Part shown: in pieces, positions 211-64,000 of the stretch
How the letters are laid out: each line of letters begins with the position of its first letter
Position numbering within the stretch: the stretch's first letter is position 1
Source of the DNA: Trueperaceae bacterium
Lineage (GTDB): Bacteria; Deinococcota; Deinococci; Deinococcales; Trueperaceae
NCBI GenBank assembly: GCA_965213705.1
Contig: OZ243913.1
Coordinates: 1,440,001-1,504,000, forward strand
DNA: 64,000 bases
Direction: 5' to 3'
Translations under genes and position numbers: made by a program
Notes under the pieces: model-generated
Database searches by the model: none
What the model saw: only the letters and a program-made list of their open reading frames with translations
Told to the model about the DNA's origin: nothing

Positions 211-453
211 TCTCGAGAGGCCGACCCGCGCGGGTCGGCCCCGGACGCACCTTACAAACTTCACTTTACTGTCAGGACGTGGGACGCGGCTTTACGAAAC
301 CTAACACCTGCTTTGGCCCGACAACCTCACGTCTTTCGAGGTTTGCTACCAACACCAAACCTCGACCGGGCTGAGCGGGAGCGGATGTTTACCGAAGTGA
401 ACAAGGTGGCTTGGGTCAGTGTGCCGCTTCTCTCGAGCGGGCATGATGACGCC

Positions 454-1947
454 ATGCCGCGTTTGCTGTGGATTGCCGCTCTTTTGGGTCTGGTGAGTTG
501 TCTGCCTATCCCGACGGTGAGGCTGGACGTGGAGCTGCCCCCCGTCACCTACCGCTCGTCCCCCTCAACGGTGCCGACCGACTACGTCACAGTGCCGGGT
601 TTCGACGAAGCCCACACGCCGGACGCGCTCGACCGGAGTTACTACCTCCGCTATTACCACGCCGGAGACACGCCCGACACTGTTTTAATTCTTGTTCCCG
701 GAATTTTCGGCGGCGCGACGAGCATGGACGAACTGGCCCGGCAACTCGTCGCCAGCACGCCGGACTTGGAAGTGTGGGGAGTTGACCGCCGCGCCAACGC
801 GCTCGAGGACAGGAGCGCGTTTTTGAGAAGCTTGCAGAAACGCGACCCGAGCGCCGCCTACCGCTACTACGTCGAAAACGAGGGCAAACCGGGCGGCTTC
901 GTGCCCGTCCCGCCCAAAGACCTGAGTTTTATGGGCTACTGGGGTCTGGACGTCCACCTGCGCGACCTGCACGCGGTCGTGTTGCAGGCGCGGCGGCGCG
1001 CCCCGCGGGTCGTTTTGGGCGGCCACTCGCTCGGCGCGAGCCTTGTCGGGCTCTACGCGGCCTACAACTTCGGTACGCCTAGAAACCCCGACCCCGGTGA
1101 CGACCACGTGGACGGACTGCTGCTCATCGACGGCGCGCTCGGCCGGACGGGCGGTTTCGGAATCGACCCAACCCTGACGACGGTGCTGGGCATTTTGCCG
1201 GACGTGCAGGGGCTCGAGACGGGTACGGACGCGCCTTACCTCGGCCTCGGTTTGGGTCCGACGTTTCAGGCGCAGCGGGAAGTTTTGGCGCTGCTGGCGC
1301 GCTTTGCGCCCAACAGGTTGGCCCCCGACGCCTTTGTGGAGTTTCCGGCCACGAACCGGGCCGCCTTTGGAATTCTCGAGACCGACCGCTACGGCCCGGT
1401 CACGGTATTCACCAGTTCCTTGGGCGAAGCGGTCGGCGCGACGTTCGGCGGCAACCTGACCGCGTTCGTGCTGGGCGGCGCGGACAGCGCCACGAGTCGC
1501 ACGGTGACGGGCGTGGCGAACGGCTTCCACCAAGTCGATTGGGCGCGCGGCGACCCCGCCACGGCGCGCACCGACATCGACGCCCTGACGCGGGGTTGGT
1601 CGACGCCCCAAACCAACCGCAGCGAATGGTACTTTCCGCTGCGCTTGGCCGTCGACGTGGGCGAGGCGGGTTTGCGCTTGGATGACGACCCGGGGTTCGT
1701 CCCCAACGCTTCTGTCACCACCCCGACGCTCGCCGTCGGCGCGGGGCGCGGGCTCGTCAAAGACCTCTCCGGTTTCGAGGCCTACAACAACGTGCGGCCG
1801 GGCTCGCTGTTCTCCACGTACATTCTCCCCGGCCTGACGCACTTAGACATCGTCGAGGCCGAAGACAACCCGCTCGTGTCGTTGTTCAAACTGTGGACGG
1901 TGCAGCTCGAGCGGGTTGGAGGAAAGGTTGAACGAGTAGGGGAATAA
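454..1947 (+). CDS. Alpha/beta-hydrolase fold lipoprotein
   Basis: Signal peptide with lipobox LVSC from ATG 454; oxyanion PG-x-F-GG; nucleophile GHSLG; C-terminal His (THLD). Confidence 0.75.
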   Translation: MPRLLWIAALLGLVSCLPIPTVRLDVELPPVTYRSSPSTVPTDYVTVPGFDEAHTPDALDRSYYLRYYHAGDTPDTVLILVPGIFGGATSMDELARQLVASTPDLEVWGVDRRANALEDRSAFLRSLQKRDPSAAYRYYVENEGKPGGFVPVPPKDLSFMGYWGLDVHLRDLHAVVLQARRRAPRVVLGGHSLGASLVGLYAAYNFGTPRNPDPGDDHVDGLLLIDGALGRTGGFGIDPTLTTVLGILPDVQGLETGTDAPYLGLGLGPTFQAQREVLALLARFAPNRLAPDAFVEFPATNRAAFGILETDRYGPVTVFTSSLGEAVGATFGGNLTAFVLGGADSATSRTVTGVANGFHQVDWARGDPATARTDIDALTRGWSTPQTNRSEWYFPLRLAVDVGEAGLRLDDDPGFVPNASVTTPTLAVGAGRGLVKDLSGFEAYNNVRPGSLFSTYILPGLTHLDIVEAEDNPLVSLFKLWTVQLERVGGKVERVGE

Positions 1948-2102
1948 CACCCTTTTCGGTTCATGACCTCAGTTAACCCGAGCGGAACGAGAAAAACTGT
2001 TGCGGGTTTCGATAAGGAGCCGAAAAACCCCTTTAAGTTTGGTAGGCGTATTACCGGAGCCCGTACAAAACAAAAGGCTCTTACTCCCTACCTCCAACAC
2101 CC

Positions 2103-3647: not shown

Positions 3648-3658
3648 AGCGTCACCTG

Positions 3659-6498: not shown

Positions 6499-7398
6499 AT
6501 GGACAAATCTACAGACCTGGACCGCGACCAACTCCAACGAGACATCACCGACCTATACGTCCGCGAGCACAAGGCGCTGGGTGAAGCGGGGACGCTCTCC
6601 CACTTAGAGCGGGGCAAGGAGCTGTCCCAAAAGTTCGACCTCCCCAAAACCCTGCGCGAGGGCGGCGTCCTGGTCTTTCCCCACGTCGGCGTAGCTGACT
6701 GCGGCTACCAGGTCGCGGCTTGCGTCCACGCCGCCCTCGACAGCGGCGCGGACAAGGTCTTGTTCATCAGCGTGCTTCACGCCTTTACCGAGGCGATGGA
6801 ACAAGCCCGGCGCGGCGTCGCCGTGGGTGAGCCGCCGAGCAACTACGAGTTTTGGGGCGTCCAAGGCCCCGGTTTGGAAGGTCGTAAGGAGTGGTTGGGC
6901 GACCACGCGCCGATGAGCTGGCGCTACTTCTGGGAGGCCGAGACCAAGCGGCGCGGCCTGGACAACCCGCCCGAGGTGCTCGAGCGTTTCCCCTACCTAG
7001 CGGGCGGCAAACCCGAAGACTTACCCGGCATCGAAGAACTCCAAGAAATCGCCAAAGACGCCGTCATCGTCTCGACCGCCGACGCCTTTCACCACGGCGT
7101 CGGCTACGGCGACGCGCCCGAAGACTCGTTCGACCACGACGCCGCGGGGCTCGCCAAGGCTAAAAGAGTTTTGGAGGAGGGCATTGCTATCCTCGAGGAA
7201 GCCGACTATTCGGGCTACAACCAGCACTGCGTCCGGGCTAAGAGCGACGCTCGAGACGCTGGGCAAGTGTTCCGCTACCTGCGCGGTCCCATGAAGGGCC
7301 GCGTCATCGACCTGACTTATAGCGACGCGGGCGAGCTTTATAAGTCGCCCGAGCCGACTTGGGTGGCGTCGGCGCTGTTCGAGTGGAAGAAAATGTAA
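6499..7398 (+). CDS. Hypothetical protein with divergent Memo/LigB-like motifs
   Basis: Host-like codon usage; FPHVG, ISVLH and STADAFHHG motifs; TAGAAT box 5 nt upstream. Confidence 0.6.
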   Translation: MDKSTDLDRDQLQRDITDLYVREHKALGEAGTLSHLERGKELSQKFDLPKTLREGGVLVFPHVGVADCGYQVAACVHAALDSGADKVLFISVLHAFTEAMEQARRGVAVGEPPSNYEFWGVQGPGLEGRKEWLGDHAPMSWRYFWEAETKRRGLDNPPEVLERFPYLAGGKPEDLPGIEELQEIAKDAVIVSTADAFHHGVGYGDAPEDSFDHDAAGLAKAKRVLEEGIAILEEADYSGYNQHCVRAKSDARDAGQVFRYLRGPMKGRVIDLTYSDAGELYKSPEPTWVASALFEWKKM

Positions 7399-7419
7399 GT
7401 TGTTTAGGAGAAAGGTTGC

Positions 7420-7620
7420 GTGATGATAAAGGTCGGCAGTCGTGTTGTACATGATAACGGTCAAAATTCTTTTGGTCACGGCACAGTCCTTCATATCAAC
7501 GAAAAGTTGGACACTGTGCTCGTCAAGTGGGACACGCATGAAGTAACGCGTCAGACAGCAGACTTGGGAACAGACACCTCGCATGTCAGGTTGAGTAGTT
7601 TGAGCCTTGAGCCGATTTGA
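7420..7620 (+). CDS. Small hypothetical protein (beta-rich, SH3-like pattern), lower GC
   Basis: RBS AGGAG upstream; stop overlaps the next ATG. Confidence 0.5.
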   Translation: MMIKVGSRVVHDNGQNSFGHGTVLHINEKLDTVLVKWDTHEVTRQTADLGTDTSHVRLSSLSLEPI

Positions 7621-8153
7621 TGGAGCCCTTGTCTAAGTTGGACGAGACAGTTCTTCCGGCTTTAGAAAATCTGTTTACCTACGTTCAGCGTAGTGGTTGG
7701 CATGGGCGTGAGAATGAGGCGGTGAGCCTATTTGCGTTTTCCCATCTTCTTCCTCTTACCGCACCCGACAAGGTTCTTTATGACCCAGGTCAAATAGCGA
7801 TTGAATGCGCCGTTCTTCAAGTTGACACAGTTTCGCCGAGAAAGAGTGGACGCCACAAAAAGGATGTACGCAAAGACCTCATCCTTTGGCCTAAACCTCA
7901 TCAGACCTACTGGTTTCCCGAAAACAGCTTGCCTCCTCTGGCCGTTATGGAGTGGAAAGTGTTTCGCAGCTCTCCTCGTTCAAGGAAAAAGGATATGGCG
8001 GTCAGCGAGAAAGATGTCGAATGGCTGAAACTCTATTCAAAATACTCGGAGCAAACAGCCTGTTACGCGGTGTCGTTATATCTCGGTGCTCAAACAGGTC
8101 TGTTGTGCTGTAAAGTTCAGAACGGAGATGTTGAAGAACTTTTGCGGCTGTAA
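7620..8153 (+). CDS. Hypothetical protein, possible PD-(D/E)xK nuclease fold
   Basis: E..(ENEAV), IECAV, KDLILW and AVMEWK pattern; lower GC. Confidence 0.5.
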   Translation: MEPLSKLDETVLPALENLFTYVQRSGWHGRENEAVSLFAFSHLLPLTAPDKVLYDPGQIAIECAVLQVDTVSPRKSGRHKKDVRKDLILWPKPHQTYWFPENSLPPLAVMEWKVFRSSPRSRKKDMAVSEKDVEWLKLYSKYSEQTACYAVSLYLGAQTGLLCCKVQNGDVEELLRL

Positions 8154-8216
8154 CGTCTTGAAAAATTGCTTTTTAAGGCCGGAATTGATAGCCGTCACCT
8201 CTGCTATAGTTGGCCT

Positions 8217-8618
8217 GTGTTCCCTCGCGTCCTGGACAAGCACATCGAAATCACCCCCGGCATCGCGGGCGGAAAACCGCGCATCGCAGGACGCCGTATT
8301 ACAGTGCAAAACATCGTCATCTGGCACGAGCGTTTGGGCAAAAGCGCGGACGAAATCAGCAGCGAGTACGACCTGCCTTTGGCGTCTGTCTACGCGGCCT
8401 TAGCTTACTACTTCGACCATGTGGTAAAAATCAACAAAAGTATCAAAGAGGGTGAAGCATTTGCTGAGCAAATGCGCAAGGAGGACGCTTCAGTTCTGAG
8501 TCAAAGGCCGATGGGCTTACATCCGATGAAGCTTTCGGACGAAGCGGTGGCTGAATCCATACGTCCCTTGAGCGACGAAGATTTGGGTTTTTGGCAAGAC
8601 AACGATTTTCCTAAGTGA
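8217..8618 (+). CDS. DUF433 domain protein (putative antitoxin) with C-terminal extension
   Basis: IEITPGIAGGKPRIAGRRITV...VYAALAYY; extended -10 TGcTATAGT 6 nt before GTG 8217. Confidence 0.8.
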   Translation: MFPRVLDKHIEITPGIAGGKPRIAGRRITVQNIVIWHERLGKSADEISSEYDLPLASVYAALAYYFDHVVKINKSIKEGEAFAEQMRKEDASVLSQRPMGLHPMKLSDEAVAESIRPLSDEDLGFWQDNDFPK

Positions 8619-8665
8619 GTTTCCCGTCTGATTATCTCCGCCTGAGACTTGACCCTAAACAGAGT

Positions 8666-10618
8666 TCAAATCAACCACAACCGCTCATAAGGCTTTAACG
8701 ACAGCGTCCCGTTCGCGTCCACAAACCTCTGCTCGAGCTGGTCGTACGGCTCGCCTAAACCGTAAAAGCGCAGCACGTCCGTGGACATTTCCTGCACCTC
8801 TTCGGTGAAGTTGTATATGCCGAGGAAGTTGCCCAAGGGGTGCCGCCGCAGGTAGGTAAACACGTGCGGGTGACCGGTCGTGACGATTTCGGTGTCGTAG
8901 CTTGAATTCAGGTGCGGCGTCCGTTTGCGCGCCCGCACGATGTGGGTGAGCCCGTAAAACAACCTAGCCTCGACCGAGCCTGGCTGGTGGCGCAGCAGCA
9001 CCCTGTCCCAGGGCATTTTGGGCCGGTGTAGCCAGCGGCTGTCCCCGGCCAGCTCGGGGTCGTCGGCGAAGTCATAGTCGTTCAGCAAACCCAGTTCGTC
9101 GCCCATAAAAATCAGCGGGAGACCGCCGAAACCGCAGATGAGCGCGTGGCCTAACAAGATACGCTCGACGGCGAAGGCGACGTCTTTCTGGTCGCGGTTT
9201 TCAACAGCGGTTTCCAACCCCGCCAAACTCGCAAAGGTGCCGGTGATGCGCCGGTCTTGCGTGACCGGGTTGAACTGAAACACGCCGCCCCTCGCGAACG
9301 ACCCCTCGAACCCCCCCGAGTAAAAGTCCGATAAAAACTTGCGGTGCAAGAAGCCGTTCAAACCGAGCGCCGCGGCGTCCTCGTCGGTGACGGCCCAACC
9401 GATGTCGTCGTGGCCGCGAATGTAGGTGCCCCAGGCAATCGAGGTCGGGGTGCGCGGAAACTCGGCGAGGGTGTGGGTCATGAGTCTCGTATCGCGGCTC
9501 GCCAGCGCCGACCAGAACTGCACCATGAGGCTGTTGTGGTAGGCGATGTTCGACACCTTGCCGTAGTGCCGCCCGACGCCGAAGTAGCGTACCAGGTCGT
9601 CCGGCGAGACGATGGCCTCGGCTTTGTGCGCGACCGCGGGCGTGGCGATGCGCGAGCAGGCGCGCAGGGCTTGCAGCAGGTCGTACACCTCCGTCTGGTT
9701 TTGCGAGTTCGTGCCGAGGCGCTTCCACAAAAACGCGACCGCGTCGAGTCGAAACACCTCGACCCCGCGGTTCGCCAGGTAGAACATGATGTCGGCAATC
9801 TCTAAAAAAACCTCGCTGTTACTCCAATTGAGGTCCCACTGGTACTCGTGAAACGTCGTCCAGACCCACTTGCCCATATCCGGGTAGTAGGTGAAGTTGC
9901 CCGGCGCGAAGTCGGGAAAAATCTCCGGCAGGGTTTTCTCAAAAGCGTCGGGTTCGGTTCTGTCGTCGTACATGTAAAAGTAGTCCTGATACTTTTTGTC
10001 GCCCGCTCGAGCCTTCAAAGCCCACTCGTGCTCCTTGGCGCAGTGGTTGAGGACTAAGTCGATGCACACGCTGATGTTGCGTTCGCGCAAACTCTGGCAG
10101 AGGTTTTCCAGGTCGTCAACCGTGCCGAGTTTGGGGTCCACGTCGCGGTAGTCCACCACCGCGTAGCCGCCGTCGTTCTCGCCCGCGCGCGGTTTGATGA
10201 CTTTCATGAGGTGGAGGTACGTCGCGCCGAGTTCTTCGAGGTAGTCGAGGTGGTCTTTAACGCCGTTCAAGGTGCCCGCGAAGCGGTCGACATAAAACAC
10301 GTAGCCCAACATCGACTCGCGCTGAAACCAGTCGGGCGTGAGGTCGCGCTCGATGTCGAGGGCCTTTAAGGTCTCGGGCCGGTCGCGGTAGGTCTCGGCC
10401 ATGCGCAGCAAAAGCTTTTCCATGAACGCTTCAAAGTCGCGTTTGCGGCCGTAAACCGGGTGAAGACCGTCGTAAAGGTTTTGGAAAAAGCGCTCCAAGC
10501 GCAGTGAAAACAGTTGCCGGTCACGGCTGGCGAGTTGGTTTAGGACGGGCTCGAGCGCGGGCAGCAGCGTTTCGTAAAGATGCCGCGCGTTGCGGGTGAA
10601 AAGTTGGACGTTCTGCAC
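8666..10618 (-). CDS. Amylosucrase / GH13 subfamily 4 glucosyltransferase
   Basis: DGGYAV, FRLDAVAFLWK (nucleophile), KAEAIV (acid/base), HDDIGW. Confidence 0.88.
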   Translation of the reverse strand: MQNVQLFTRNARHLYETLLPALEPVLNQLASRDRQLFSLRLERFFQNLYDGLHPVYGRKRDFEAFMEKLLLRMAETYRDRPETLKALDIERDLTPDWFQRESMLGYVFYVDRFAGTLNGVKDHLDYLEELGATYLHLMKVIKPRAGENDGGYAVVDYRDVDPKLGTVDDLENLCQSLRERNISVCIDLVLNHCAKEHEWALKARAGDKKYQDYFYMYDDRTEPDAFEKTLPEIFPDFAPGNFTYYPDMGKWVWTTFHEYQWDLNWSNSEVFLEIADIMFYLANRGVEVFRLDAVAFLWKRLGTNSQNQTEVYDLLQALRACSRIATPAVAHKAEAIVSPDDLVRYFGVGRHYGKVSNIAYHNSLMVQFWSALASRDTRLMTHTLAEFPRTPTSIAWGTYIRGHDDIGWAVTDEDAAALGLNGFLHRKFLSDFYSGGFEGSFARGGVFQFNPVTQDRRITGTFASLAGLETAVENRDQKDVAFAVERILLGHALICGFGGLPLIFMGDELGLLNDYDFADDPELAGDSRWLHRPKMPWDRVLLRHQPGSVEARLFYGLTHIVRARKRTPHLNSSYDTEIVTTGHPHVFTYLRRHPLGNFLGIYNFTEEVQEMSTDVLRFYGLGEPYDQLEQRFVDANGTLSLKPYERLWLI

Positions 10619-10765
10619 AAGGATTTATCATACAAGCTCAGCGCCACACCGCGGCGTGGAGAGTGTCGAAATTTCAGGATTCACATGCGTGACTTGCGAC
10701 GTTTTCGGTTGGGACGCTCGCTTTTGCTGACACTCGCAACTGCACAACATAGAATGGGGGCAGGT

Positions 10766-10991
10766 ATGTCCCAAGACTTCGACACTTACAAAGCGTCTCA
10801 AGAAAGAGATTGACAGTGAAGACGTTGTCGGCGATTTCAGCGAACGGGAAATCTGGTGGTGCCGGATTGGACACAACATCGGCTTTGAAGAAAATGGTAA
10901 AAACCGTCGGTTCTCTCGGCCGGTTCTCGTTTTCCGTAAGTTCAACAAGCGCTTTTTCTACGGATTTCCGTTGAGTACGAAGGGCTCCTTA
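10766..10991 (+). pseudogene. PemK/MazF-family toxin remnant, frameshifted near the N-terminus and cut by IS630
   Basis: MSQDFDTY then shifted frame KRLKKEID...FSEREIWWCRIGHNIGFEENGKNRRFSRPVLVFRKFNKRFFYGFPLSTK up to the IS end. Confidence 0.75.
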
Positions 10992-12107
10992 TACCAAGCT
11001 GCCCAGCTGACGTCACAGTTGCCCCACAGCTTGTTGCCACCAGGGGGAGTTGGTGAGCTTTCGAAGTGCGGCTGGGTTTTGATGGTAAGTGGTGAGCACA
11101 TCTGTCAAAGCGGCTTCCAGCGCGTCGAGGGAGTCGAAGAGGGTGTTGGCAAGGGCACGCCTGAATTCGAGAAACCACCTCTCAGCGGGGTTGAGTTCGG
11201 GACTGTAAGGGGGTAAAGCTACGGGAACAATGTTGGCTGGGATGTTCAAGTTTTGCTTGATATGGGCAGGGGCGTTGTCTCTAATGAGAATGAGGGTGTC
11301 GTCGGGGTTAGTGCCGACTGAGGTGCTGAAGGAAAAGCTCGAAGCAGTCGCCGTCTAAGCGCGGCAGGTATAAGCAGAAGTCTTCGCCCGTGGCAGGTTC
11401 AACTGCAGCATAAAGCCAGGTCCATTCGTACTTACGCCTAACGTTCCAAAGCGGCCTCACCCCTCGCGGACAGTAGCGCCGTTTGTGCCAAGCAATGAGT
11501 CCAAAGCGCGCTTCGTCCATAGCCAACACCCTCACACGCTGCTTTTTGTGGTTCTGAGGTGTTTGCGGCAGTTTCCCCTTCAACGCCTCAGCGAAGTTTT
11601 TTTGAACGTTTCTTGTACTTCGGCATCTGCTTTTTCATGGCGGTAACGGCCGGTCTTGGCTTTGATGTGGTGCCGTTTAAACAAACGAAGCACGCCTGTT
11701 TCGTCTTGGTAGTGAACATCGTGCTCAGCCAGCAGCTCCCGAGCTTGTTTGTAGCTAGCTATCTCGCCTGCTCCGAGTGCCTTTTGTAGCGCTTGCCAAG
11801 CCGCTTCGTTCACCCACTCACGACGCCCCCGCTCAGAAACGCGATTCTCCAGTAGCTCACCGAGTCCGCCCGAGCGGTAAGCGTTCAGCCAGCGGTGACA
11901 CTGCCTATAGCTGTAATTCAACTCAGCTGCTGCCCCCAAACTTCTGCAACGCCCGCTCTTTAGCAGTCGCAACATCTTGACACGCTGGTTCAGGTGACTG
12001 TAACGGTGCTGCTTCTCCAGCTCTAGTAGCTCAGTCTCGCTTTCCCCTATGACTTCTTGATAATTCAGGCGCATGAGCTACTATGACACGAAACGGGCAG
12101 GATGGTA
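10992..12107 (-). mobile_element. IS630-family insertion sequence, probably inactive
   Basis: Imperfect terminal inverted repeats TACCAAGCTGCCC / TACCATCCTGCCC, TA duplication at 10990-10991 and 12108-12109, HTH orfA plus DDE orfB. Confidence 0.9.
11013..12074 (-). pseudogene. IS630 transposase: orfA (11580-12074) and orfB joined by an A7 -1 frameshift; orfB broken by a 1-bp insertion near 11309
   Basis: DEARFG, DNAPAH and LPPYSPELNPAERW motifs; TAACCCCGAC where TAC CCC GAC would keep the frame. Confidence 0.85.
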
Positions 12108-12116
12108 TAAGACGTT

Positions 12117-12680
12117 TTAAGGTGACTCAGGAAATTCGGCAGGGAAAGAAACGAACAAAAGATCTCGCCTCTCTAAGAGCAATGTCTTTAAGGCACTCCA
12201 TTTCAGTTCGACCGTTACCTGCTGAGCTGTAACACCTATAGCATGGACACGTCCGCCCAATAGCTCAATTTGTGCTTTAAGCGGGGCATATACCGGAGAG
12301 CGCAGCTTTGCCACCGAGTCTGCCCAGGCCGCATAATACTCAGCTCGCCAAGCTGGATCGACAAATGTTTCCTGATTTCCAGGAGCTGGATCTATTCTGG
12401 GGTCCGCCAGATAGTCGAGGTAAGCCTGATCCGCCGCGAAGCATTGGGTCAAATCCACTGTAGTCTGGGTATCTTGTTGCGAGCCGGCGAGGTACGCCTG
12501 AAGGTGCTCAGATATTCTTGGGCTTAGTTTGCTTGTGATCGCAGGTGCGGTTACGGCGCAAACAGAAGGAGAATTCACCTTATACCAGCTCGCCTGGTCC
12601 TGGTCCATGTCCTCTAACGAGCTTCCGCACGCACTAAGCAACCCAGAGAGTAGGAGAACCATCACAAATTTATTCACCAC
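12117..12680 (-). CDS. Hypothetical lipoprotein, lower GC
   Basis: Signal peptide with lipobox LSAC. Confidence 0.6.
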   Translation of the reverse strand: MVNKFVMVLLLSGLLSACGSSLEDMDQDQASWYKVNSPSVCAVTAPAITSKLSPRISEHLQAYLAGSQQDTQTTVDLTQCFAADQAYLDYLADPRIDPAPGNQETFVDPAWRAEYYAAWADSVAKLRSPVYAPLKAQIELLGGRVHAIGVTAQQVTVELKWSALKTLLLERRDLLFVSFPAEFPESP

Positions 12681-12890
12681 GGACCATCCGTGCCAGTGTC
12701 TGTCGCAAAGTCGCTGCTCACAACCTCATCCTCTTTCTCTTCAACTAGCACCTGAGGTTAGTATATTCAGTCACTTCGCCAGCGCGAGAGAAATTTCGAA
12801 CGGATTTTGGACTAGTATCGACAACGACGTTATATAGGGTGCCACGGGTTTTCATCAGCCCAACGCCGATGGTATTTGCATAAGACCTGT

Positions 12891-14024
12891 TCATAAACGA
12901 ATGTTCAAAGCCCCTCGAGCCCCCAGCACCTTTTCCCTCGCCTCTTCAGCCGTGTCCCCCAGCGCCGTCACGTGCCCCATCTTCCGCCCGGCTCGGGCTT
13001 CTTTTTTGCTGTAGAGGTGCAGGTGAACATCTCGAGCCAGAACCTCAGCCCAGTTCGGTTCGCCTGTCTGCCACAGGTCGCCCAACAGGTTCGCCATCGC
13101 CGCGGCGCGTAGCGATTCGGTCGAGCCCAAGGGCAAGCCGCAGACCGCGCGGAGTTGCTGCTCGAACTGGCTCGTCGCGTGGGCTTCAATCGTCAGGTGT
13201 CCCGAGTTGTGAGGCCGCGGCGCGAGTTCGTTGACGAGGAGCGTGTCGTCGTGGGTTACAAAAAACTCGGCGCAAAGCACGCCGACGACGTTGAGGGTTT
13301 CCAGGACGGCTCGAGCGGTCTCGAGGGCCGTTTCGGCGACCTTGGGAGACACGTCGGCGGGGGCTGTGGTGACGTCTAAGATGTGGTTTTTGTGCTCGTT
13401 CGCCAGCACGCCGAAGTGATTGAGTGCGCCCGCAGGGTTGCGCGCCGCGACGACGGAAACTTCTTGCTTGAAGTCGATGAACCTCTCGAGAATCGCCTCG
13501 CCGCCGAGGTCGTCGTAGGCTGAGACCAGTTCGGCCAACGACGCCACGCGCCGCTGCCCCTTGCCGTCGTAGCCGAAGCCTGCCGTTTTGAGAACGGCGG
13601 GAGCGCCCACAGCGTCGAACGCGGACGCGAGGTCTTCCGCGCTGCGAACCATCCTGAACGGGACGACGGGAAAGCCGTTTTGCGCCAAAAACGTCTTTTC
13701 CCGCCCCCGGTTTTGGGTGACGTGCAGCACCTCGGGCGAAGGGTGGACGGGTGTCACGGCTTGCGCGGCAGTAAGCGTTGCCGCGGGAATGTTCTCGAAC
13801 TCGACGGTGAGCACGTCCACGCCGTTTGCAAAGGCGCGAACGGCGTCCAGGTCGTCGTAAGAGGAAACCAGCTCCAAGTCGGACACTTGTCCGGCGGGCG
13901 TGTCTTTGCCCGGCGAAAACACGTGGACCCGGTAGCCCATACGCTTCGCTTCAAAAGCGAGCATCCGCCCGAGTTGGCCGCTGCCGAATACGCCGAGGGT
14001 GGAGCCGGGTAAAACGGGGGTCAC
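12891..14024 (-). CDS. purK: N5-carboxyaminoimidazole ribonucleotide synthase
   Basis: [42 protein letters not shown] overlaps the purE stop. Confidence 0.95.
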
Positions 14025-18372: not shown

Positions 18373-19566
18373 ATGACCATGACGCTCGACCGCCCCCAGC
18401 AAGACCTCTGGTTCGACCTGAACGCAGACCAAAAAGCCATCCTCGGCCCGCTCCGCGAGTTTTTAACTTCGGAGGTCGCCCCCGGCGCAGTTGCCCGTGA
18501 CAAAACGGGTGAATTCCCGCTCGACATTGTCAAACAGCTCGGTGACATGGGCGTGCTCGGGATGCAGGTGCCGGAGAAATATGGTGGAGCAGCCCTAGAC
18601 ACCGCGACGATGGCCCTCATCATCGAAGAAATCGCTGCGGTGGACGGCTCGCTCTGCTTAACGGTCGCCTCGCACAACTCGCTCTGCACCGGGCACATTC
18701 AAATCGCCGGCAACGAGGCGCAGTATGAACAGTGGTTGCCCGACTTAGCGAGCGGCAAAAAACTCGGCGCTTGGGGCTTGACCGAACCCGGCTCGGGCTC
18801 GGACGCGGCGGGCTTGTCGACCAAGGCCGAGGACAAGGGCGACCACTTCGTCATCAACGGCGCGAAGTCGTTTATCACCCAGGGGACGGTCGGCGGCACC
18901 TACGTCGTCGTCGCCCGCACCGACGCGCCGCGGGAGGGCAAGTCCAAGGCTGACGGCATCAGCGCGTTCGTCTTTGACGGCGAAGCGCAAGGTTTGGTGC
19001 GCGGCAAGCCGGAGGAAAAGCTCGGGCTGCACAGCTCGGACACCACGCCGCTGACCTTTGAAAACCTGGAAGTTCCCGCTGCGAACCTGCTCGGCGAGCG
19101 CGGCGACGGCTTCAAAGACGTGATGGACGTGTTGAACGGCGGGCGCATAGGCATCGGCGCGATGGGCATCGGACTCGGCCGCGGAGCCTTGGAGATTGCC
19201 GCGAAGTACGCCCTCGAGCGCGAACAGTTCAACAAACCTATCGCCACCAACCAGGGTATCAGCTTCAAAATCGCCGAGATGGCGCTCGAGCTGGAAGCCG
19301 CCCGGATGCTCGTCCTCAAAGCCGCCGCCCTGAAAGACGCCGGCCGCGACTTCGCGCTGGCCGCCTCGATGGCGAAGCTGAAAGGCTCGGTCGCCGGGGT
19401 GCAGGCTTGCGACTACGCGATTCAGATTTTGGGCGGCTACGGCTACATCAAAGACTATCAAGTCGAGCGCATGTGGCGCGACGCGCGGCTGACCCGCATC
19501 GGCGAGGGCACGGACGAGGTGCAGCACATGATTATCTCGAGGGCGTACCTGAGCCAGTTCCGCTGA
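18373..19566 (+). CDS. Acyl-CoA dehydrogenase
   Basis: GLTEPGSGSD, NGAKSFIT, KLGLHSSDT, REQFNKPI, QILGGYGY, RIGEGTDEVQ. Confidence 0.93.
   Translation: MTMTLDRPQQDLWFDLNADQKAILGPLREFLTSEVAPGAVARDKTGEFPLDIVKQLGDMGVLGMQVPEKYGGAALDTATMALIIEEIAAVDGSLCLTVASHNSLCTGHIQIAGNEAQYEQWLPDLASGKKLGAWGLTEPGSGSDAAGLSTKAEDKGDHFVINGAKSFITQGTVGGTYVVVARTDAPREGKSKADGISAFVFDGEAQGLVRGKPEEKLGLHSSDTTPLTFENLEVPAANLLGERGDGFKDVMDVLNGGRIGIGAMGIGLGRGALEIAAKYALEREQFNKPIATNQGISFKIAEMALELEAARMLVLKAAALKDAGRDFALAASMAKLKGSVAGVQACDYAIQILGGYGYIKDYQVERMWRDARLTRIGEGTDEVQHMIISRAYLSQFR
19532..19566 (+). repeat. Direct repeat copy 1 (3' end of acyl-CoA dehydrogenase)
   Basis: TTATCTCGAGGGCGTACCTGAGCCAG identical at 20188-20213. Confidence 0.92.
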
Positions 19567-51527: not shown

Positions 51528-51529
51528 GT

Positions 51530-51813: not shown

Positions 51814-52806
51814 TTAGCGGGCGACGCCGCCCACTTTGGGTTTTTTGGGGTCTTGGTGGTACGCGACCTCCTTGCCGCCCGACAGCTCCCCCCAACTCAC
51901 CTCTTCGTCCAGGGTGATGACCTTGACCGGGCAGGCCGTCACGCAGGCGCTGCAACCGTTGCAGCGTTCGGGCTCGAGCATGAGCGCCGTACCTTCTAAG
52001 TCTTCGGGGTCGAAGTCCCGGCCGAACGCTTTTGTCGGGCACACGTTGGTGCAAACCGGACACATGATGCAGCCGTCCGCGACCCGCGGCAAAATCCAGG
52101 GCACGACGCCGCCCTGTTCCGGGGCCGAGCGCTCGATAAGCCGGTACTGCCGCTGCATCTCTTTCGGCAGCGAGGCGTCGTTTTCGCCGCCCGGGTCGAA
52201 GGGGGCGAGCGCCTCGGCGGCGGACGCCTGCAACCCGCGCCAACCGCCCCGCAACAGCTCGCGGCGGCTCACCGGGTCGGGGTTGTCGACGGCGTCGTAG
52301 CGTTCGGCGACGACGGTCTCGATGCTGAAGTCGCGACCGCGCAGGGCCGCCAAGTCCTGGGCTTCGGCTTGCAAAAGTTCTACGGCCAGCGGCACCGCGG
52401 CGTTGCCTATTTTGCACTCGGCGCAGTCCGAGCGGACCAGCGTGACGCTTTCTTTACGGCCCGCCAAACGCAGCAGGTCGCTCGGTGCGAGGCGGCTCAG
52501 GCACTGCACCGACTGCGCGCCGCCCTTGACTTGCGAACACTTCAGCGGCGCGCCGGGCTGGTAACTCACCTTGGACTCCAGAGCTTGCGACGGACACGCC
52601 TGCACGCACAAACCGCAGCCGGTGCAGTCGACATCGTCGATAGACACCTCTTTACCGCGCACAAAGCTAATAGCCTCGTGCGGACAGGTGTCCCGACAAA
52701 TACTGCAGGCCGACACGCTTTGCTTGTAAGCGAGGCAGTGCTCTTTGGTGTAGTCAGGCTGGACGCTGACCGCTTTGACGAACAAGTTGACAAGGTTGTC
52801 CCACAT
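51814..52806 (-). CDS. Polyferredoxin / 4Fe-4S dicluster protein
   Basis: Multiple CxxCxxCxxxCP motifs. Confidence 0.88.
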   Translation of the reverse strand: MWDNLVNLFVKAVSVQPDYTKEHCLAYKQSVSACSICRDTCPHEAISFVRGKEVSIDDVDCTGCGLCVQACPSQALESKVSYQPGAPLKCSQVKGGAQSVQCLSRLAPSDLLRLAGRKESVTLVRSDCAECKIGNAAVPLAVELLQAEAQDLAALRGRDFSIETVVAERYDAVDNPDPVSRRELLRGGWRGLQASAAEALAPFDPGGENDASLPKEMQRQYRLIERSAPEQGGVVPWILPRVADGCIMCPVCTNVCPTKAFGRDFDPEDLEGTALMLEPERCNGCSACVTACPVKVITLDEEVSWGELSGGKEVAYHQDPKKPKVGGVAR

Positions 52807-52822
52807 GGTTAAGTCAAGTATA

Positions 52823-52852
52823 AACGGCCGGGTGCGAGCAGACCCGGCCGTT
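52823..52852. terminator. Hairpin downstream of DAHP synthase gene
   Basis: AACGGCCGGGT-8nt-ACCCGGCCGTT. Confidence 0.6.
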
Positions 52853-53034
52853 CTTTACAAGGGTTAGGCAGTCACAAAACTGTTAAATCGAGCAAAACCG
52901 TTCGTCGTTGCGGGCGAAGCGCGGCAATCTACGTTTGAAGTGTGCCGGCGTTGAAGTGGTGCAAGGTTACCCGACGTTTCCGCCCCCTCGCTGCGACAAA
53001 GACAACCGACTTCGGGCTTGCGCTGTCATAGGTC

Positions 53035-54138
53035 CTAGAACCCGTAGACTTCGTGCCGCTTGGCCGAGAGCTTTTTGTGGTAGCCGGTTTCTTCTAAGTA
53101 AGTATCGAACTGGTCGAAGTCCATCTGCTGTTTCTGGTCGGACAGGGCGACCGCCGGGTTGGGATGCAGTTCGACCATAACCCCGTCGGCCCCGACCGCG
53201 AGGCCCGCTTTGGTGAGTGGCACCAGCAGGTCGCGCCGACCGCCCGAGTGCGTCACGTCGACCAGCACCGGCAGGTGCGTTTCTTGTTTGGCGAGCGCGA
53301 CCGCCGAGACGTCCAGGGTGTTGCGCGTGTACTGTTCGAAGGTGCGGATGCCGCGCTCGCACAAGATGATGTTCGGGTTGCCCTCGCTCATCAGGTATTC
53401 CGCCGACATCACCCACTCTTCGATGGTGGAACTCAGGCCGCGTTTGAGCAGGACGGGCTTGCTCGTTTTGCCCACGGTTTTGAGCAGCGTGAAGTTTTGC
53501 GAGTTGCGCGCGCCGATTTGGAGCACGTCGACGTACTCCTTGAACAGTTCGATGTCGCTGCCGTCCATAATCTCGGCGACGAACGACAGACCGTGTTTGT
53601 CGCAAGCCTCCCTCGCCCAGACGAGCGCCTCCTCACCGTGCCCCTGAAACGAGTACGGGTTGCTGCGCGGTTTGAACGCGCCGCCGCGAAACAGCTTGAC
53701 GCCGTGACTTGCAATGTGGGCGGCCGTTACCTCGACTTGTTCTTTGGACTCCAGGGCGCACGGCCCCGCGACCAGCACGGGCGCGTGCTTGCCGCCGATG
53801 TCGGTGTCCCCGACGCGCACCACGGTGTCTTCCTGGCGCGTCGCCCGAGAGGTCAAAAATTTGGGCTTGTCCGCCTTTTTACCGACTTCCATGCTCGCTT
53901 GAAAAATGGCCTTGAACAAGCTTTTCAGCGCGCCGTTCTCAAAAGGCCCGGTGTTGGCGGCGGTGAGCGCGTCCAGCATCTCTTTTTCGCGCACCGGGTC
54001 GTACTGCGAACTGCCGTTGCTCGTTTGCAGCGCGCCGATTTCTTTGGCGAGTTTGGCGCGTTTGGAGAGCAGCTCGAGCAAGTCCAAGTTCAAGCTGTCG
54101 ATTTGTCGGCGAAGCTCCACGATTTTTGCGTCAGGCAT
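53035..54138 (-). CDS. Bifunctional chorismate mutase (AroQ) / DAHP synthase type I-beta
   Basis: LR.QID..N, YDPVRE; AGPC, GGAFKPR, QIGARN, LLKRG, CERGIR, VDVTHS. Confidence 0.93.
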   Translation of the reverse strand: MPDAKIVELRRQIDSLNLDLLELLSKRAKLAKEIGALQTSNGSSQYDPVREKEMLDALTAANTGPFENGALKSLFKAIFQASMEVGKKADKPKFLTSRATRQEDTVVRVGDTDIGGKHAPVLVAGPCALESKEQVEVTAAHIASHGVKLFRGGAFKPRSNPYSFQGHGEEALVWAREACDKHGLSFVAEIMDGSDIELFKEYVDVLQIGARNSQNFTLLKTVGKTSKPVLLKRGLSSTIEEWVMSAEYLMSEGNPNIILCERGIRTFEQYTRNTLDVSAVALAKQETHLPVLVDVTHSGGRRDLLVPLTKAGLAVGADGVMVELHPNPAVALSDQKQQMDFDQFDTYLEETGYHKKLSAKRHEVYGF

Positions 54139-55147: not shown

Positions 55148-55450
55148 TTACGCGTTCGACTTTTCGCGCTCCAAGCGCACTTTTTCCTGCTCGGCGCGGA
55201 ACGCCTCTTGCTCGGCGCGGAGTTGGGCGCGCTCTTCTTCTAAGGTTTTGGCCGCGACCTTGTCTTTGTCGTCGTCTTTTTTGACCTCTTCTTCGAAGTC
55301 GTCTTTCATGTCGCGGATGCCTTTGCGAAACTCCCGAACCGACTGACCGATGCCTTTCGCCATGTCCGGTAAGCGGCGCGGCCCGAAGATGAGCAGCACG
55401 ACGATGAGGATGATGATGATTTCCGGTAAACCCAAGGGACCGATACGCAT
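55148..55450 (-). CDS. tatA: Twin-arginine translocase TatA
   Basis: E.....LLIFGP.RLP....IG..REF.KG. Confidence 0.93.
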   Translation of the reverse strand: MRIGPLGLPEIIIILIVVLLIFGPRRLPDMAKGIGQSVREFRKGIRDMKDDFEEEVKKDDDKDKVAAKTLEEERAQLRAEQEAFRAEQEKVRLEREKSNA

Positions 55451-55537
55451 GGTAAACCTCCAGTGAGGGCTAGTTTAGCACCTTGCTATGTGAAAAAGTG
55501 TTTGTTGAAGCTGGGTCTGAGAGCCGGGTTCAGCAAG

Positions 55538-55567
55538 TAAAAAGGGTAGGCGTTGCCACCTACCCTT
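55538..55567 (-). terminator. Intrinsic terminator after ferritin-like gene
   Basis: AAGGGTAGG / CCTACCCTT stem with a T-tract on the minus strand. Confidence 0.7.
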
Positions 55568-55579
55568 GTCGGTTACGAC

Positions 55580-56671: not shown

Positions 56672-56780
56672 TGATTTTTCCTCCTCTACTCGGCTTTCGG
56701 CCCATGTTCCGAGTAATATAGGTTTTGATGTTGGGCCTCCATCAAGCGCTTTACACGTTGGAGAGGGGTTTTGGATGTCG

Positions 56781-56828
56781 AAACCTGGTGTTGGAGACCT
56801 GATTTAGAGACCTAGTGTTGGAGACCTA
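56781..56828. repeat. Short tandem repeats (ACCTGGTGTTGGAG-like)
   Basis: Four ACCT units read directly. Confidence 0.65.
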
Positions 56829-57134
56829 CGTCACCGGTCGGAACCCCAACCTGCAGACCCCCAAGGCTTGAAACCTCCTTTCGGAAAATTTTGTTATCTT
56901 TATAACAGTAAAACATCGTACGCGTCCAGATTATCGGTTCGGCCGCCGGGTACCTTGTGGAAAGCGTCACAGCGGGCTCGGCGTTCGGCGCAGGTTTGTT
57001 TCTCGGGTTTCACGTTCTCCTGACGATTTGGGAGTTTGCGAGCTACCCGAGTTTCGCCATCCCCGGTTCGTCTCTCACTTCATCTGTAGTAGAGAGGTAA
57101 GGTGAGGCGTCGTTTTGAAGACCCGGGATGGCCT

Positions 57135-57164
57135 TTGACAGCCGTTCTGAAACCGTTTTACAAT
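57135..57164 (+). promoter_or_regulatory. Sigma70-type promoter with overlapping LacI-family operator
   Basis: TTGACA-18-TACAAT; TGAAACCGTTTTACA at 57148-57162. Confidence 0.65.
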
Positions 57165-57376
57165 CGCGTCACTGCCGAGTTGAATACAGTGGCGTTGCAA
57201 CGGCGTCCGGTTGGGTCATGATGACGGGGGTCGCTATGACGTGCGTAAACGGTTCGTTCGGTAGACGTTTGACAAGAGGCGGTGCCGAAGTGACGCCCCG
57301 ACGTTCGCCCCGGTAAAGGAGGTTGTAAAAGGCAGTCAAGGTGTAGCAAGCTCGAGGGTTGCAGAAACGCTTCAGG

Positions 57377-58929: not shown

Positions 58930-58949
58930 AACCAACAGAGAGTATTCGA

Positions 58950-60095: not shown

Positions 60096-60114
60096 CGCTC
60101 GAGCGTGCGCGAAG

Positions 60115-60154
60115 ACCCCTCCGCCCTTCGGGCACCTCCCCTGAAAGGGGAGGG
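60115..60154. repeat. REP-like palindrome CCCCTCCGCCCTTCGGGCACCTCCCC..GGGGAGG
   Basis: Double hairpin between the permease genes. Confidence 0.55.
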
Positions 60155-60194
60155 AGAGGCGTGGGGGCGAAGGTGGCTAGGTTCAGGGGCGATT

Positions 60195-61211: not shown

Positions 61212-62314
61212 GGGTGAAGGAAACCGTCGTTCATCTCCGGCCGGAAATCTTCGGGGAGCGGGAGCGCGTGTTGCTCGAGCACCCTTCCTTCACCGCCTCG
61301 ACCTTTCGCTATGACAGCGGCGTGGCGGCGCTGCGGCTCGAGAATGAATCCGGCGACATCGTCATGCTGCCGTTTCAAGGCCAGCAAATCTGGTCGGCAC
61401 GTTTCGGCGGGCGCGAGTTGACAATGAAGAGCATGTTCGAGGAGCCGAGGGAGACGGGTGACTATCTGCAGACCTACGGCGGCTTCCTCATCCACTGCGG
61501 CGTCACGGCGATGGGCGTGCCGGGCGCGGGCGACACGCATCCCTTGCACGGCGAGTTGCCTAACGCGCCCTACGGGCAAGCTTACCTGTTTCTCGGTACG
61601 GACGAGCGCGGGGCGTATTTGGGCCTCGGCGGGCGTTACCGGCACACGGCCGCCTTCAGCAGCAACTATGTGGCTGAGCCTCGAGTCAAACTCTACGCGA
61701 ACAGCAGTCTCATCTCGGCCTCCCTCAGCGTCACCAACTTCAAATCCACGCCGATGGAACTGATGTATTTGGCGCACATCAACTTTCGGCCGGTTGACAA
61801 TGGGCGGCTCGTCTACAGCGCCAAAACCGACCCCGAGCACGTGCGCGTCAGAAAAAGTATTCCCTCGCACGTGACGCCCGCACCGGGCTACGCCGAGTTT
61901 TTAGAAGAATTGTCGCAACATCCTGAAAAACATCACGTCTTAACACCCGGCCTCGCCTTCGACCCCGAGGTGGTGTTTTTCATCGACTATTCGACCGACG
62001 AAGACGGCTGGGCTCACACCCTGCAGCTTCACCCGGACGGCGCGGCCGACTACGTGCGCCACCGGCGCGAACAGTTGGACACGGGCGTGCGCTGGATTTG
62101 TAGAACGCCCGACCAGGACGCGCTCGGCATGATAGACCCGGCCACCGCCGAGCCGGAGGGCTACAGCGCCGAAAAGGCCAAGGGCAATCTGAAAACAGTG
62201 CCGCCCGGAGGCGTTTGGCGTTGCGAGTACGACATGGGCGCGCTGAGTGCGCTCGAGGCCGAAAAAATAACCCAGCACATCGAGCACATCACCGAAGGAG
62301 AAACCCGTGGCTGA
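61208..62314 (+). CDS. DUF4432 / aldose epimerase (mutarotase)-like protein
   Basis: [38 protein letters not shown]. Confidence 0.8.
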
Positions 62315-64000
62315 CTTCGAAACCCAAACGCCCCGCAACCGCCTTATCGGCAACTCCCCCAAAGTCGGCATCCGCCCGGCCATCGACGGGCGTTTGGGCG
62401 GCGTGCGGGAATCGTTGGAGGCTCAGACGATGGCCTTGGCCGAGGCCGTCGCCGACCTCATCACCCAAAACCTGCAGCACGCCGACGGCCTGGGGGTCGA
62501 GTGCGTCGTCGCCGACAGCGCCATCGGCGGGGTGGCAGAGGCGGCACGTTGCGCCGAGAAGTTCGCCCGCGCGGGCGTCGGCGTGTCCATCACCGTGACG
62601 CCCTGCTGGTGCTACGGCTCGGAGACGATGGACATGAGTCCGCTGCTGCCCAAAGCGGTGTGGGGCTTCAACGGCACCGAACGCCCCGGCGCGGTCTACT
62701 TAGCGGCGGTGATGGCGGCGCACGCGCAAAAGGGGCTCCCGGCCTTCAGCATCTACGGGCGCGAGGTGCAGGACGCGGGCGACACGAGCATCCCCGACGA
62801 CGTACAGCAAAAACTGTTGCAGTTCACCAAGGCCGCGCTGGCGGTGGCGACGCTGCGCGGCAAAAGTTACCTGTCGGTGGGCGGCGTGTCGATGGGAATT
62901 ATGGGCTCGCTGGTAGACCCCGACTTTTTCGAGGCTTACTTGGGGATGCGTGTCGAAACCGTCGACATGAGCGAGGTGGCGCGGCGCGTGGAGCAAGGCA
63001 TCTTCGACCCGGAGGAGTTCAAACGGGCGCTCGAGTGGACGACCCAAAACTGTCCCGAAGGCGAAGACTACAACCCGGCAGAGGGGCAGCAGAGCCGCGA
63101 AGAAAAAGACGAAACCTGGGCGACGAGCGTCAAAATGGCGCTCGTCATGCGCGACCTCATGGTCGGCAATCCCGCGCTCGCCAAGCTGAGCTACGGCGAA
63201 GAGGCGCTGGGCCACAACGCCATTGCCGCGGGTTTTCAGGGTCAGCGGCAGTGGACGGACTTTCGGCCCAACGGCGACTTTATGGAGGCGATTTTAACGA
63301 GTTCGTTCGATTGGAACGGCGTTCGCCAACCCTTTATGGTCGCGACCGAGAACGACGCCCTGAACGGCGTGACAATGCTGTTCGGGCACCTGCTCACGAA
63401 CAGCGCCCAAATTTTCGCCGACGTGCGCACCCACTGGAGCCCCGAGGCGGTGAAGCGCGTCACCGGGCACACCCTCACGGGCCGTGCCGAGGGCGGCTTG
63501 TTGCACCTCATCAACTCCGGCCCGGCGGCACTCGACGGCACCGGGCAGCAGGAACAGGGCGGCCGGCCCGCCATGAAACCTTTTTGGGACATCACGCCCG
63601 AGGAGGCGACACGCTGTTTGGAGGCGACGACCTGGCACGCCGGGATGCTCGAGTACTTCCGGGGCGGCGGCTGGTCGACGCGCTTCGTGACGAGGGGTGA
63701 CATGCCCGTCACCATGACGCGCCTCAACTTAGTCAAAGGCCTCGGCCCGGCGCTGCAAATTGCCGAGGGTTACACCGTCGGTCTTCCCGAAGAGGTTCAC
63801 GCGACACTAGACGAGCGCACCAACCCGACCTGGCCGACGACCTGGTTCGCACCCAACTTGACCGGCCGCGGCCCCTTCCGTGACGCCTACAGCGTGATGG
63901 CGGCCTGGGGTGCCAACCACGGCGCACTCGCTTACGGGCATATCGGCAGCGACTTGGTAACTCTGGCCTCGCTGCTGCGGATTCCGGTTTACATGCACAA
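62307..64000 (+). CDS. fucI: L-fucose (D-arabinose) isomerase, truncated by the window end; absent from the ORF track
   Basis: Manual translation from GTG 62307: [69 protein letters not shown]. Confidence 0.95.

Follow-up and report, generated by a model that had tools for sequence, protein, structure and literature searches.

CTCGAG is a clade-wide enriched word in a Trueperaceae genome and its relatives that resembles HIP1 but is not HIP1

Why does a bacterial genome carry one six-base palindrome several times more often than its composition predicts? The question is raised by a 64,000-nucleotide stretch of a Trueperaceae bacterium (GCA_965213705.1, contig OZ243913.1; G000:C1:1440001-1504000, hereafter the window), in which CTCGAG recurs throughout. 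The genome, G000, is a single contig of 4,246,949 bases, 98% complete, with a GC content of 0.609. Its GlyA matches best (89%) that of a Trueperaceae metagenome-assembled genome, with values of 69–79% for other Deinococcota, and the organism is treated here as an uncultured member of that family. An earlier note, made from the letters alone, had put the count at about 127 (about 2 per kb) against some 20 expected at ~62% GC, and had likened the word to the cyanobacterial palindrome HIP1. The count is indeed exactly 127 (Table 1), the zero-order expectation computes to 21 at the window GC of 0.615, and 100 dinucleotide shuffles contain 23.5 ± 4.5 copies (maximum 34). Genome-wide there are 8,868 sites, 2.09 per kb or about one per 480 bases. 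The enrichment is real and clade-wide; it resembles HIP1 in most tested features, yet it is not HIP1.

The excess belongs to the full hexamer. Observed/expected (O/E) ratios in G000 are 6.4, 5.9, 3.7, 2.4 and 1.47 at Markov orders 0–4, so that enrichment remains at the highest order. CTCGAG ranks first of 4,096 hexamers both by O/E (order 2) and by z (order 4), the order-4 z of 90 being inflated by the counting of a palindrome on both strands. The other 15 NTCGAN words, which the earlier note had named as potential rivals, reach O/E values of only 0.14–1.17 at order 2. This comparison rules out the TaqI core TCGA, which the note had also considered, as the target in G000. The second-best palindrome has an O/E of 1.67 and most six-base palindromes are depleted, some almost to extinction (GAGCTC 73 sites, TGGCCA 41, CCATGG 27). 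CGATCG is nearly missing (59 sites, O/E 0.03) and GATC has an O/E of 0.10, with nine copies in the window; a DpnII-like pair of D12 and N6/N4 methylases at 4.058–4.062 Mb fits the avoidance of GATC. CTCGAG itself is spread evenly, at 1.8–2.3 per kb in every 200-kb bin. The fullest 500-bp bin holds seven sites and the 16S stretch none.

Codon usage was assessed on 3,604 genes from our own gene caller rather than a standard gene finder, with ten synonymous shuffles within each gene. Frame CTC-GAG occurs 5,048 times against 1,977 in the shuffles (2.55×), NCT-CGA-G 898 against 47 (19×) and NNC-TCG-AG 1,070 against 300 (3.6×). The earlier contention that Leu-Glu dicodons do not suffice is borne out, and a codon or dipeptide cause is ruled out in all frames. 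In-frame Leu-Glu makes up 57% of genomic sites (5,048 of 8,868); in the window 72 sites are of this kind, 14 are NCT-CGA-G, 16 NNC-TCG-AG and 25 lie outside called genes. After CTC, 94% of Glu codons are GAG, against 55% after non-Leu codons. Likewise, the Arg codon is CGA in 72% of NCT-Arg-G contexts (n = 1,254), in 5–10% of the other three contexts and in 5% where neither flank fits. Among dipeptides Leu-Glu is enriched 1.25-fold; Ala-Arg, Pro-Arg and Ser-Arg are not enriched. T-rich codon pairs such as TTTAGA and TTTTTG also exceed the codon shuffles of G000, by 2.6–4.8-fold.

Between genes the word has an O/E of 4.4–4.9 and is the top word in each of three spacer-length classes (2.8, 2.2 and 1.6 per kb). 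A 10-base flank is common to three or more copies at just 11 of 1,814 intergenic sites, which rules out a repeat family of the REP or MITE type (repetitive extragenic palindromes, miniature inverted-repeat transposable elements). The flank preference, G before and C after, is gone within 1–2 bases. The 13 window sites that the earlier note had called intergenic all lie outside called genes, and the seven it had assigned to other frames are all in those frames (Table 1).

Low-GC stretches without the word had been reported for the window, together with comparable gaps in native genes, and both kinds are present (Table 1). A second native gap spans 55150-57350; given the site-free stretch at native GC, 2-kb gaps also arise in ordinary genes. 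Across the genome, density is steady at 2.0–2.15 per kb from 50 to 66+% GC (2,078 of 2,123 two-kb windows), a range over which a control word climbs from 0.62 to 0.90. It is 1.4 per kb in the 45 windows below 50% GC and also in the 29 windows with at least four GATC, such GATC-rich windows comparing with 2.2 per kb elsewhere.

What kind of force maintains the word can be read from its single-base neighbours. Across 433 kb between genes, CTCGAG is favoured over each of the nine with odds of 7.8–14.8 relative to matched control contexts, transitions and transversions being equally affected; at synonymous positions inside genes the odds are 2.9–63. Since all nine neighbours are disfavoured alike, the full hexamer is recognised and not a single mismatch type. 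By this statistic, too, CTCGAG ranks first of 4,096 (5.5; runner-up 2.2, median 0.99). The strongest word in G000 that is independent of CTCGAG is CTAAGT/ACTTAG (odds 2.1; 1,198 sites). A repair-driven origin, as the earlier note had proposed, fails in its base-specific form: no C5 methylase (PF00145) was found in G000, no Vsr (PF03852) in any of five genomes searched, and the nine neighbours behave alike. Very-short-patch enrichment by Vsr/Dcm is ruled out, as it is not only T-to-C neighbours that are drained.

Comparison with a congener, G001 (604 orthologue pairs from ~800 kb of its 4.4 Mb; four-fold divergence 0.27 in the first 301 pairs), separates gain from loss. At both in-frame positions gain runs at 2.2 times controls, and loss at 0.25 and 0.08 times controls, estimates that rest on few changes (41 and 17). 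For selection or conversion equally strong, the expected values are 2.5/0.27 and 3.5/0.12, and for pure protection a gain of 1.0. Frame-2 positions gave 1.6 and 5.7; frame-1 gains (41× and 89×) were set aside, because conditioning on shared context inflates them and they come from ~100 sites. At the codon level, loss is 4- to 14-fold under controls. Four-fold divergence does not change as one moves away from conserved sites (O/E 0.91–1.06 in ten bins, 301 orthologues, within the range of three control words), and no local mutation protection of the Dam/MutH type is seen within the reach of the test, 500+ bp; tracts of at least 1 kb would escape it.

Sites also avoid each other at short range. 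Overall, 47% of 10,829 Leu-Glu pairs are spelled CTCGAG, a share that is 24% when another site lies within 12 bp, 32% at 12–25 bp and 56–57% beyond 600 bp. The neighbour ratio is 0.48 below 25 bp, 0.85–0.90 at 25–100 bp, ~1 at 100–400 bp and 1.02–1.10 at 0.4–3.2 kb, with flat controls (0.95–1.06). Part of the shortest-range deficit is mechanical, because tandem copies would create the avoided GAGCTC. The coefficient of variation of spacing is 0.94, against 1.02–1.27 for eight control words. No kb-scale period was detected (spectral peak p 0.32 in 1-kb and 0.84 in 5-kb bins) by a method simpler than the published one, and deletion between sites is not evident, the word lying in the junction repeat of one of 22 clean indels. 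CTCGAG is under a saturating, position-indifferent pressure and is both gained and retained.

Is this peculiar to one genome? The comparison of related Deinococcota that the earlier note had called for was made by counting the word in 161 genomes of the order, with family and genus labels inferred from GlyA matches and gene content; neighbour odds were sampled on 55 stretches of 2.5–400 kb plus G000, the short ones being noisy. The genomes are kin rather than independent, and GC confounds the tallies. The word proved to be clade-wide and, by lineage, favoured, spared or avoided. The ratio CTCGAG/CTCGAC is 9–54 in all 12 genomes of family f5 (4.3–6.5 sites per kb), ~4.6–19 in all 13 Meiothermus-type genomes (g30), 0.7–18.8 in 46 Trueperaceae (f1) and at most 0.45 in all 44 Deinococcus-type genomes (f2; up to 0.27 sites per kb). 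Neighbour odds are 5–41 in f5, 3–7 in g30, g44, g46 and G030, and 0.2–0.8 in the Deinococcus type. Trueperaceae that bear one of the methyltransferases described below hold 0.6–2.7 sites per kb from 38% to 73% GC while their odds fall from 33 to 1.4 (20–33 at 38–42% GC); nine stretches of enzyme-free members have odds of 0.4–2.0, including 1.0 in G003 (47% GC). Much of the count in relatives of 68–74% GC is background. In f5, spacings of 75–150 bp are in excess. Stretches of f5 (L178-L185, L244-L251) show extreme restriction-site avoidance alongside the densest CTCGAG: words containing GGCC are missing in G028 and G059, and GTCGAC, ATCGAC, GAGCTC and CAGCTG in G050. Where CTCGAG is favoured, GAGCTC tends to be purged (rho -0.57, 46 genomes), which would follow if both grew with the amount of DNA exchange.

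Thermus-type genomes (g27) differ in kind. All 25 have 1,455–2,537 CTCGAG against 5–63 CTCGAC, and their neighbour odds are 34–71 at the outer position and 0.9–2.0 at the inner ones, so TCGA is avoided except inside CTCGAG, without extra gain. TCGA is almost erased outside the word (36 of 39 lie within it in 40 kb, mostly as CCTCGAGG, e.g. L188-L189 and L297). With one orphan methylase kept in 25 of 25, these genomes are a clean example of how a methylase spares part of a set of restriction sites. Among Thermus phages, the temperate IN93 resembles its host (four of four TCGA within CTCGAG), P74-26 has four of 26 (50 of 83 kb) and phiLo none of 73 (100 of 178.5 kb). The last encodes an enzyme of the host's type at 51% identity (L323:22311-23453).

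Which enzymes read the word? Active enzymes making CTCGm6AG (m6A, N6-methyladenine) and lacking a cognate nuclease are described in Marinithermus hydrothermalis, Meiothermus chliarophilus and M. ruber (PMC4752239). By single-molecule real-time sequencing, M.Mru1279II, M.Mch9957IV and M.Mhy14884I modify 94–99.5% of sites (PMC4752239, S3, S4). A TaqI-like enzyme of G030 (first type) and a PaeR7I-like enzyme of G049 (second type) appear to be orthologues of these enzymes. The G049 enzyme we take to belong to the PaeR7I family; a homologue sits beside an XhoI-family nuclease in G024, which supports the name. That nuclease is broken into two frames (L064:1408-2099) and adjoins the intact methylase, and we read G024 as a restriction system turning into an orphan. 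XhoI-family nucleases occur in three of 41 relatives; those of G026 (L063:1198-3095) and G038 (L062) accompany a beta-class N4/N6 methylase, not the usual gamma-class enzyme. The first type is present in 25 of 25 Thermus-type genomes and in g47 and g29, and in none of 45 Trueperaceae, 44 Deinococcus-type, 12 f5 or 13 g30 genomes. The second type is found in six of 45 Trueperaceae, three of 13 g30, two g46, one f3 and one f5 (weak), and in none of the 44 Deinococcus-type genomes.

An orthologue of neither type was found in G000. The earlier note had seen no cognate enzyme in the window and had suggested a search for an orphan; this yielded a conserved candidate of a third type (Table 1), 26% alike to the second type and placed tail to tail with dnaG. 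It occurs in 22 of 45 other Trueperaceae, 10 of 13 g30 and one of 44 Deinococcus-type genomes and in none of f3, f5 or g27, often with gene order kept. No nuclease neighbour was found for the gene except in G151, which has a possible partner. In g30 the second and third types complement each other exactly (3 + 10 = 13), and they co-occur in two of 27 enzyme-bearing Trueperaceae. In one of these two, G162 (L243:5412-15567), an insert of 8.4 kb that brings the second type interrupts the third-type gene; two integrase-like genes there face IS4-type transposase reading frames and the PaeR7I-type methylase. The word is thus accompanied by three distantly related orphan adenine methyltransferases of complementary distribution that replace each other. 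Enzymes of the Eco57I family read CT-NN-AG words. Taken together, type replacement, distribution and this family preference make CTCGAG the likely target of the candidate, for which no close solved relative was found. Among Trueperaceae, CTCGAG/CTCGAC exceeds 2 in 17 of 27 genomes with the second or third type and in none of 19 without.

The other methylases of G000 are type I or IIG-sized proteins, a Mod-type protein and the D12 and N6/N4 pair. No XhoI-type nuclease (PF04555) was found in G000, and that gap together with the enriched word rules out an XhoI/PaeR7I restriction-modification site. G042 has a further, unassigned Eco57I-domain gene, a caveat on the Trueperaceae tally. In six genomes (G039:C28, G117:C8, G120:C11, G132:C28, G150:C147, G162:C4) the methylase gene lies 10–14 kb from comEC, a proximity missing in G000, G073 and G049; it is probably regional synteny, since the immediate neighbours differ.

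Table 1. Positions of CTCGAG sites and associated features (window coordinates unless a contig is given)
Feature	Position	Strand	Remarks
CTCGAG, dispersed copies	212..63653	no strand	127 copies, 2.0 per kb
Intergenic site, example	212..217	no strand	also 17696, 18305, 25258, 25422, 28918, 44760, 46995
Further intergenic sites	55140, 57351, 58900, 58910, 60098	no strand	outside called genes
GCT-CGA-G site	7250..7255	+	rare Arg codon CGA; also 16954, 26852
CCT-CGA-G sites	5967, 61680		rare Arg codon CGA
NNC-TCG-AGG site	19536..19541	+	also 58325
Low-GC stretch without CTCGAG	7256..8731	no strand	GC 0.50
Low-GC stretch without CTCGAG	10556..12913		GC 0.53; 5 of 9 window GATC; foreign-looking
IS630 transposase fragment	11583-12074	-	inside site-free stretch 10556..12913
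Site-free stretch at native GC	52000..54070		GC 0.62
Third-type candidate methyltransferase	G000:C1:1135939-1137615		559 residues, gamma-class, NPPF, Pfam M_Eco57I_C; ~300 kb before window

Two other features of the window were noted: a near-tandem short repeat at 150-210, before the first site, with about three copies of a GTGTCTCCCAAAACCTG-like unit, and an adenylate/guanylate cyclase-like domain fused to an AAA ATPase region at 38530-40620 (minus strand; weak TIGR03903 and LipJ matches).

How close, then, is CTCGAG to known systems? The likeness to HIP1 claimed in the earlier note stands, for CTCGAG is the top word of its length, occupies all frames and non-coding DNA, is sparser in foreign-looking DNA and is clade-wide. 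HIP1 (GCGATCGC) and the alternate HIPs of cyanobacteria (PMC4390886, PMC5861425, PMC13756078) are likewise short palindromes and top words of their length, enriched in non-coding DNA as well as in the three frames, spread across a clade though lost in places, made by substitution and not by repeats, present at one to few per kb and associated with orphan methyltransferases that are not in every genome. Unlike HIP1, CTCGAG has six bases, another sequence and another phylum, its mark in relatives is m6A whereas the Elhai model needs 5-methylcytosine (m5C) at GC (PMC4390886), three distantly related enzymes alternate, and no kb-scale period was seen in our simpler test. Strict HIP1, GCGATCGC with GATC/CGATCG methylases, is ruled out by the depletion of CGATCG and GATC and by the C5 methylase not being found.

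The uptake sequences of Neisseriaceae and Pasteurellaceae are asymmetric words of 9–12 bases, and in Neisseria their receptor is known to be a pilin. CTCGAG resembles them in being abundant, evenly spread, sparser in foreign DNA and able to bend codon choice, and differs as a six-base palindrome with a short flank preference and with no receptor found. Campylobacter CtsM, which acts in transformation at RAm6ATTY (PMC8627207), is also an orphan adenine methyltransferase with an abundant six-base palindromic site in a competent host; the transformation effect is shown there and inferred here, where lineages without a matching enzyme keep the word. The enzymes of PMC4752239 share word, phylum and lack of a cognate nuclease, the difference being that G000 has neither type and carries a third candidate family with the Eco57I C-terminal domain. 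In Nocardia the same hexamer is the target of an orphan, an m5C methyltransferase with a Vsr partner, and sites cluster at dnaA (Blow et al. 2016), whereas here neither a C5 enzyme nor Vsr was found and the spread is even genome-wide. In its accessible parts PMC4752239 does not mention enrichment in the CTCGm6AG organisms, and a literature search that excluded most subscription papers and older word-frequency surveys returned no genome-wide CTCGAG enrichment for this phylum.

We tentatively propose that DNA uptake or recombination in the host favours CTCGAG as a HIP1-like self word, an explanation we prefer while placing it somewhat short of an even chance. A host step (uptake, protection of incoming DNA or resolution of heteroduplexes) would prefer DNA with intact CTCGAG, in most lineages in the form CTCGm6AG. 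Alleles that create sites would spread and those that destroy them would be purged wherever protein constraint permits. Saturation would be reached at about one site per few hundred bases, a second close site adding little, and orphan methyltransferases would be retained and exchanged to mark or shield thousands of sites. A self word would explain why sites are both gained and retained, why their density saturates, why foreign DNA has fewer of them and why their excess goes with the purging of palindromes. We infer that the word is favoured at uptake or recombination; as with uptake sequences, ComEC is present in G000 and the word is sparser in GATC-rich windows. In cyanobacteria HIP1 lifts transformation 7-fold, and >100-fold if methylated (10.1101/2024.09.10.611283), and a role in exchange has been argued from gene profiles (PMC13756078).

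Several observations weigh against a methylated self word in DNA exchange. Family f5, the densest, has no common methylase among the enzyme families searched: C5 enzymes of four of its genomes are merely 30–35% alike, an orphan D12 enzyme is present in five of 12, and PF01555 and PF02384 matches are scattered (four of 12 genomes examined; three of 12 for the D12 search). Methylation is therefore not the universal cause of enrichment. G127 (g44, 99% complete, 3.4 sites per kb) is enriched with no candidate enzyme found, ten enzyme-bearing Trueperaceae have ratios of only 1.0–1.8, and G061 has the enzyme yet neighbour odds of 1.1. Of the methylation link drawn in the earlier note, one part holds, in that relatives make CTCGm6AG by orphans and a conserved orphan candidate lies outside the window; f5 speaks against the rest. 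No CTCGAG methylation is listed for Meiothermus (Allomeiothermus) silvanus (PMC4752239, table S4), and 50 kb of a plasmid from this unmethylated host has neighbour odds of 3.1. On eight plasmid stretches with third-type homologues of 33–40% identity, CTCGAG is not avoided (59 seen, 63 expected). Site conservation in orthologues, another check proposed in the note, gives a divided answer: codon-level loss is low, and site Jaccard (0.50) tops eight palindromes (0.16–0.45) but equals CTCGAC (0.51). ComEC is present in 158 of 161 genomes including the Deinococcus-type avoiders, so competence does not track the word. Typical transforming fragments are far longer than ~100 bp, and the exclusion range lies far below them. 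No reader protein of CTCGAG was found, and AddAB, NucS and ComEC do not follow the word.

A broader version is possible, and we hold it only slightly less probable than the self word: the Deinococcota would carry CTCGAG as an ancestral, phylum-wide word whose density is set by an unidentified reader protein independently of any one methylase (~1–2.5 per kb in Trueperaceae and the Meiothermus type, 4–6.5 in f5), three methylase families would have been recruited in turn as markers, and Deinococcus would have lost the reader and flipped to avoidance.

Among other explanations, we regard as possible, if rather unlikely, that CTCGAG is an architectural site bound by an abundant protein such as a nucleoid protein or an SMC loader, methylation being secondary. 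The preference for the whole hexamer, the footprint-like exclusion within ~25–100 bp with the f5 excess of 75–150 bp spacings, the even chromosomal density and the persistence of the word without a methylase in f5 and g44 would suit such a role, which Xu et al. proposed for HIP1 in chromosome structure (PMC5861425; summarised in PMC13756078). However, no kb-scale period is seen, no binding protein was found, and densities differ three-fold between families, a whole family of the Deinococcus type avoiding the word. Unlikely too, in our view, is a methyl-directed repair ratchet, the Elhai model moved to m6A, in which a nickase reads the methylated strand, mismatches inside a site or close to it resolve towards the site until whole tracts are covered, and the word is a by-product. 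The model predicts saturating density and local exclusion (PMC4390886, section 3.4), Trueperaceae are enriched solely with an orphan enzyme, and all substitution types are affected alike. It sits poorly with four-fold divergence that is not reduced near conserved sites, with the lack of a common enzyme in f5, with the C5 methylase and Vsr not found in G000, and with NucS_C matches that do not follow the word in five genomes.

A third class of explanation makes the enrichment only apparent: restriction would remove other palindromes while an orphan methylase shields CTCGAG. This reading is right for Thermus-type genomes, all 25 of which keep a CTCGAG-type enzyme while inner odds are only 0.9–2.0, and the depletion of most other palindromes in G000 and the XhoI-family nucleases of relatives also agree with it. 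In G000, however, the word exceeds its non-palindromic neighbours 8–15-fold, recruits rare codons and gains faster than controls. Sparing alone cannot give this pattern and is refuted as its full explanation, and as a general account we hold it to be very improbable. We give slimmer prospects to the idea that CTCGAG serves the AddAB helicase-nuclease as a Chi-like signal. In its favour, G000 has an AddA-like protein of 924 residues with a UvrD-type start and a RecB-type nuclease motif, and 32 of 358 G000/G001 block ends lie near a site (17–21 expected); yet the PF12705 nuclease domain is present in four of 12 f5 genomes, is missing from the single-contig G050 and is found in 43 of 45 Trueperaceae, enriched or not, and CTCGAG is a palindrome. 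Known Chi words are asymmetric. Finally, an artefact of codons, dipeptides, composition or repeats has a negligible probability. The large Leu-Glu share, the mild enrichment of that dipeptide and the background at 68–74% GC lend it something, but the excess survives Markov order 4, codon shuffles and intergenic tests, is strongest in AT-rich genomes and has unrepeated flanks.

New here are the replacement of methylases among three types, a density that does not depend on GC, the exclusion of sites at short range, the separation of gain from loss and the sparing in Thermus-type genomes. What HIP1 does has been an open question for three decades, pursued in one phylum; CTCGAG adds a second phylum with its own word, and if the ancestral-word reading is true, it would be a second, independent origin of the HIP system. 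The natural gradient from avoidance through sparing to 2 and then 6 sites per kb, combined with methylases that are interchangeable or missing, provides independent contrasts that can separate methylation, repair bias, uptake and chromosome structure. The cultured, non-pathogenic hosts Meiothermus, Thermus, Truepera and Marinithermus permit direct tests, which, if positive, could make these bacteria easier to handle genetically.

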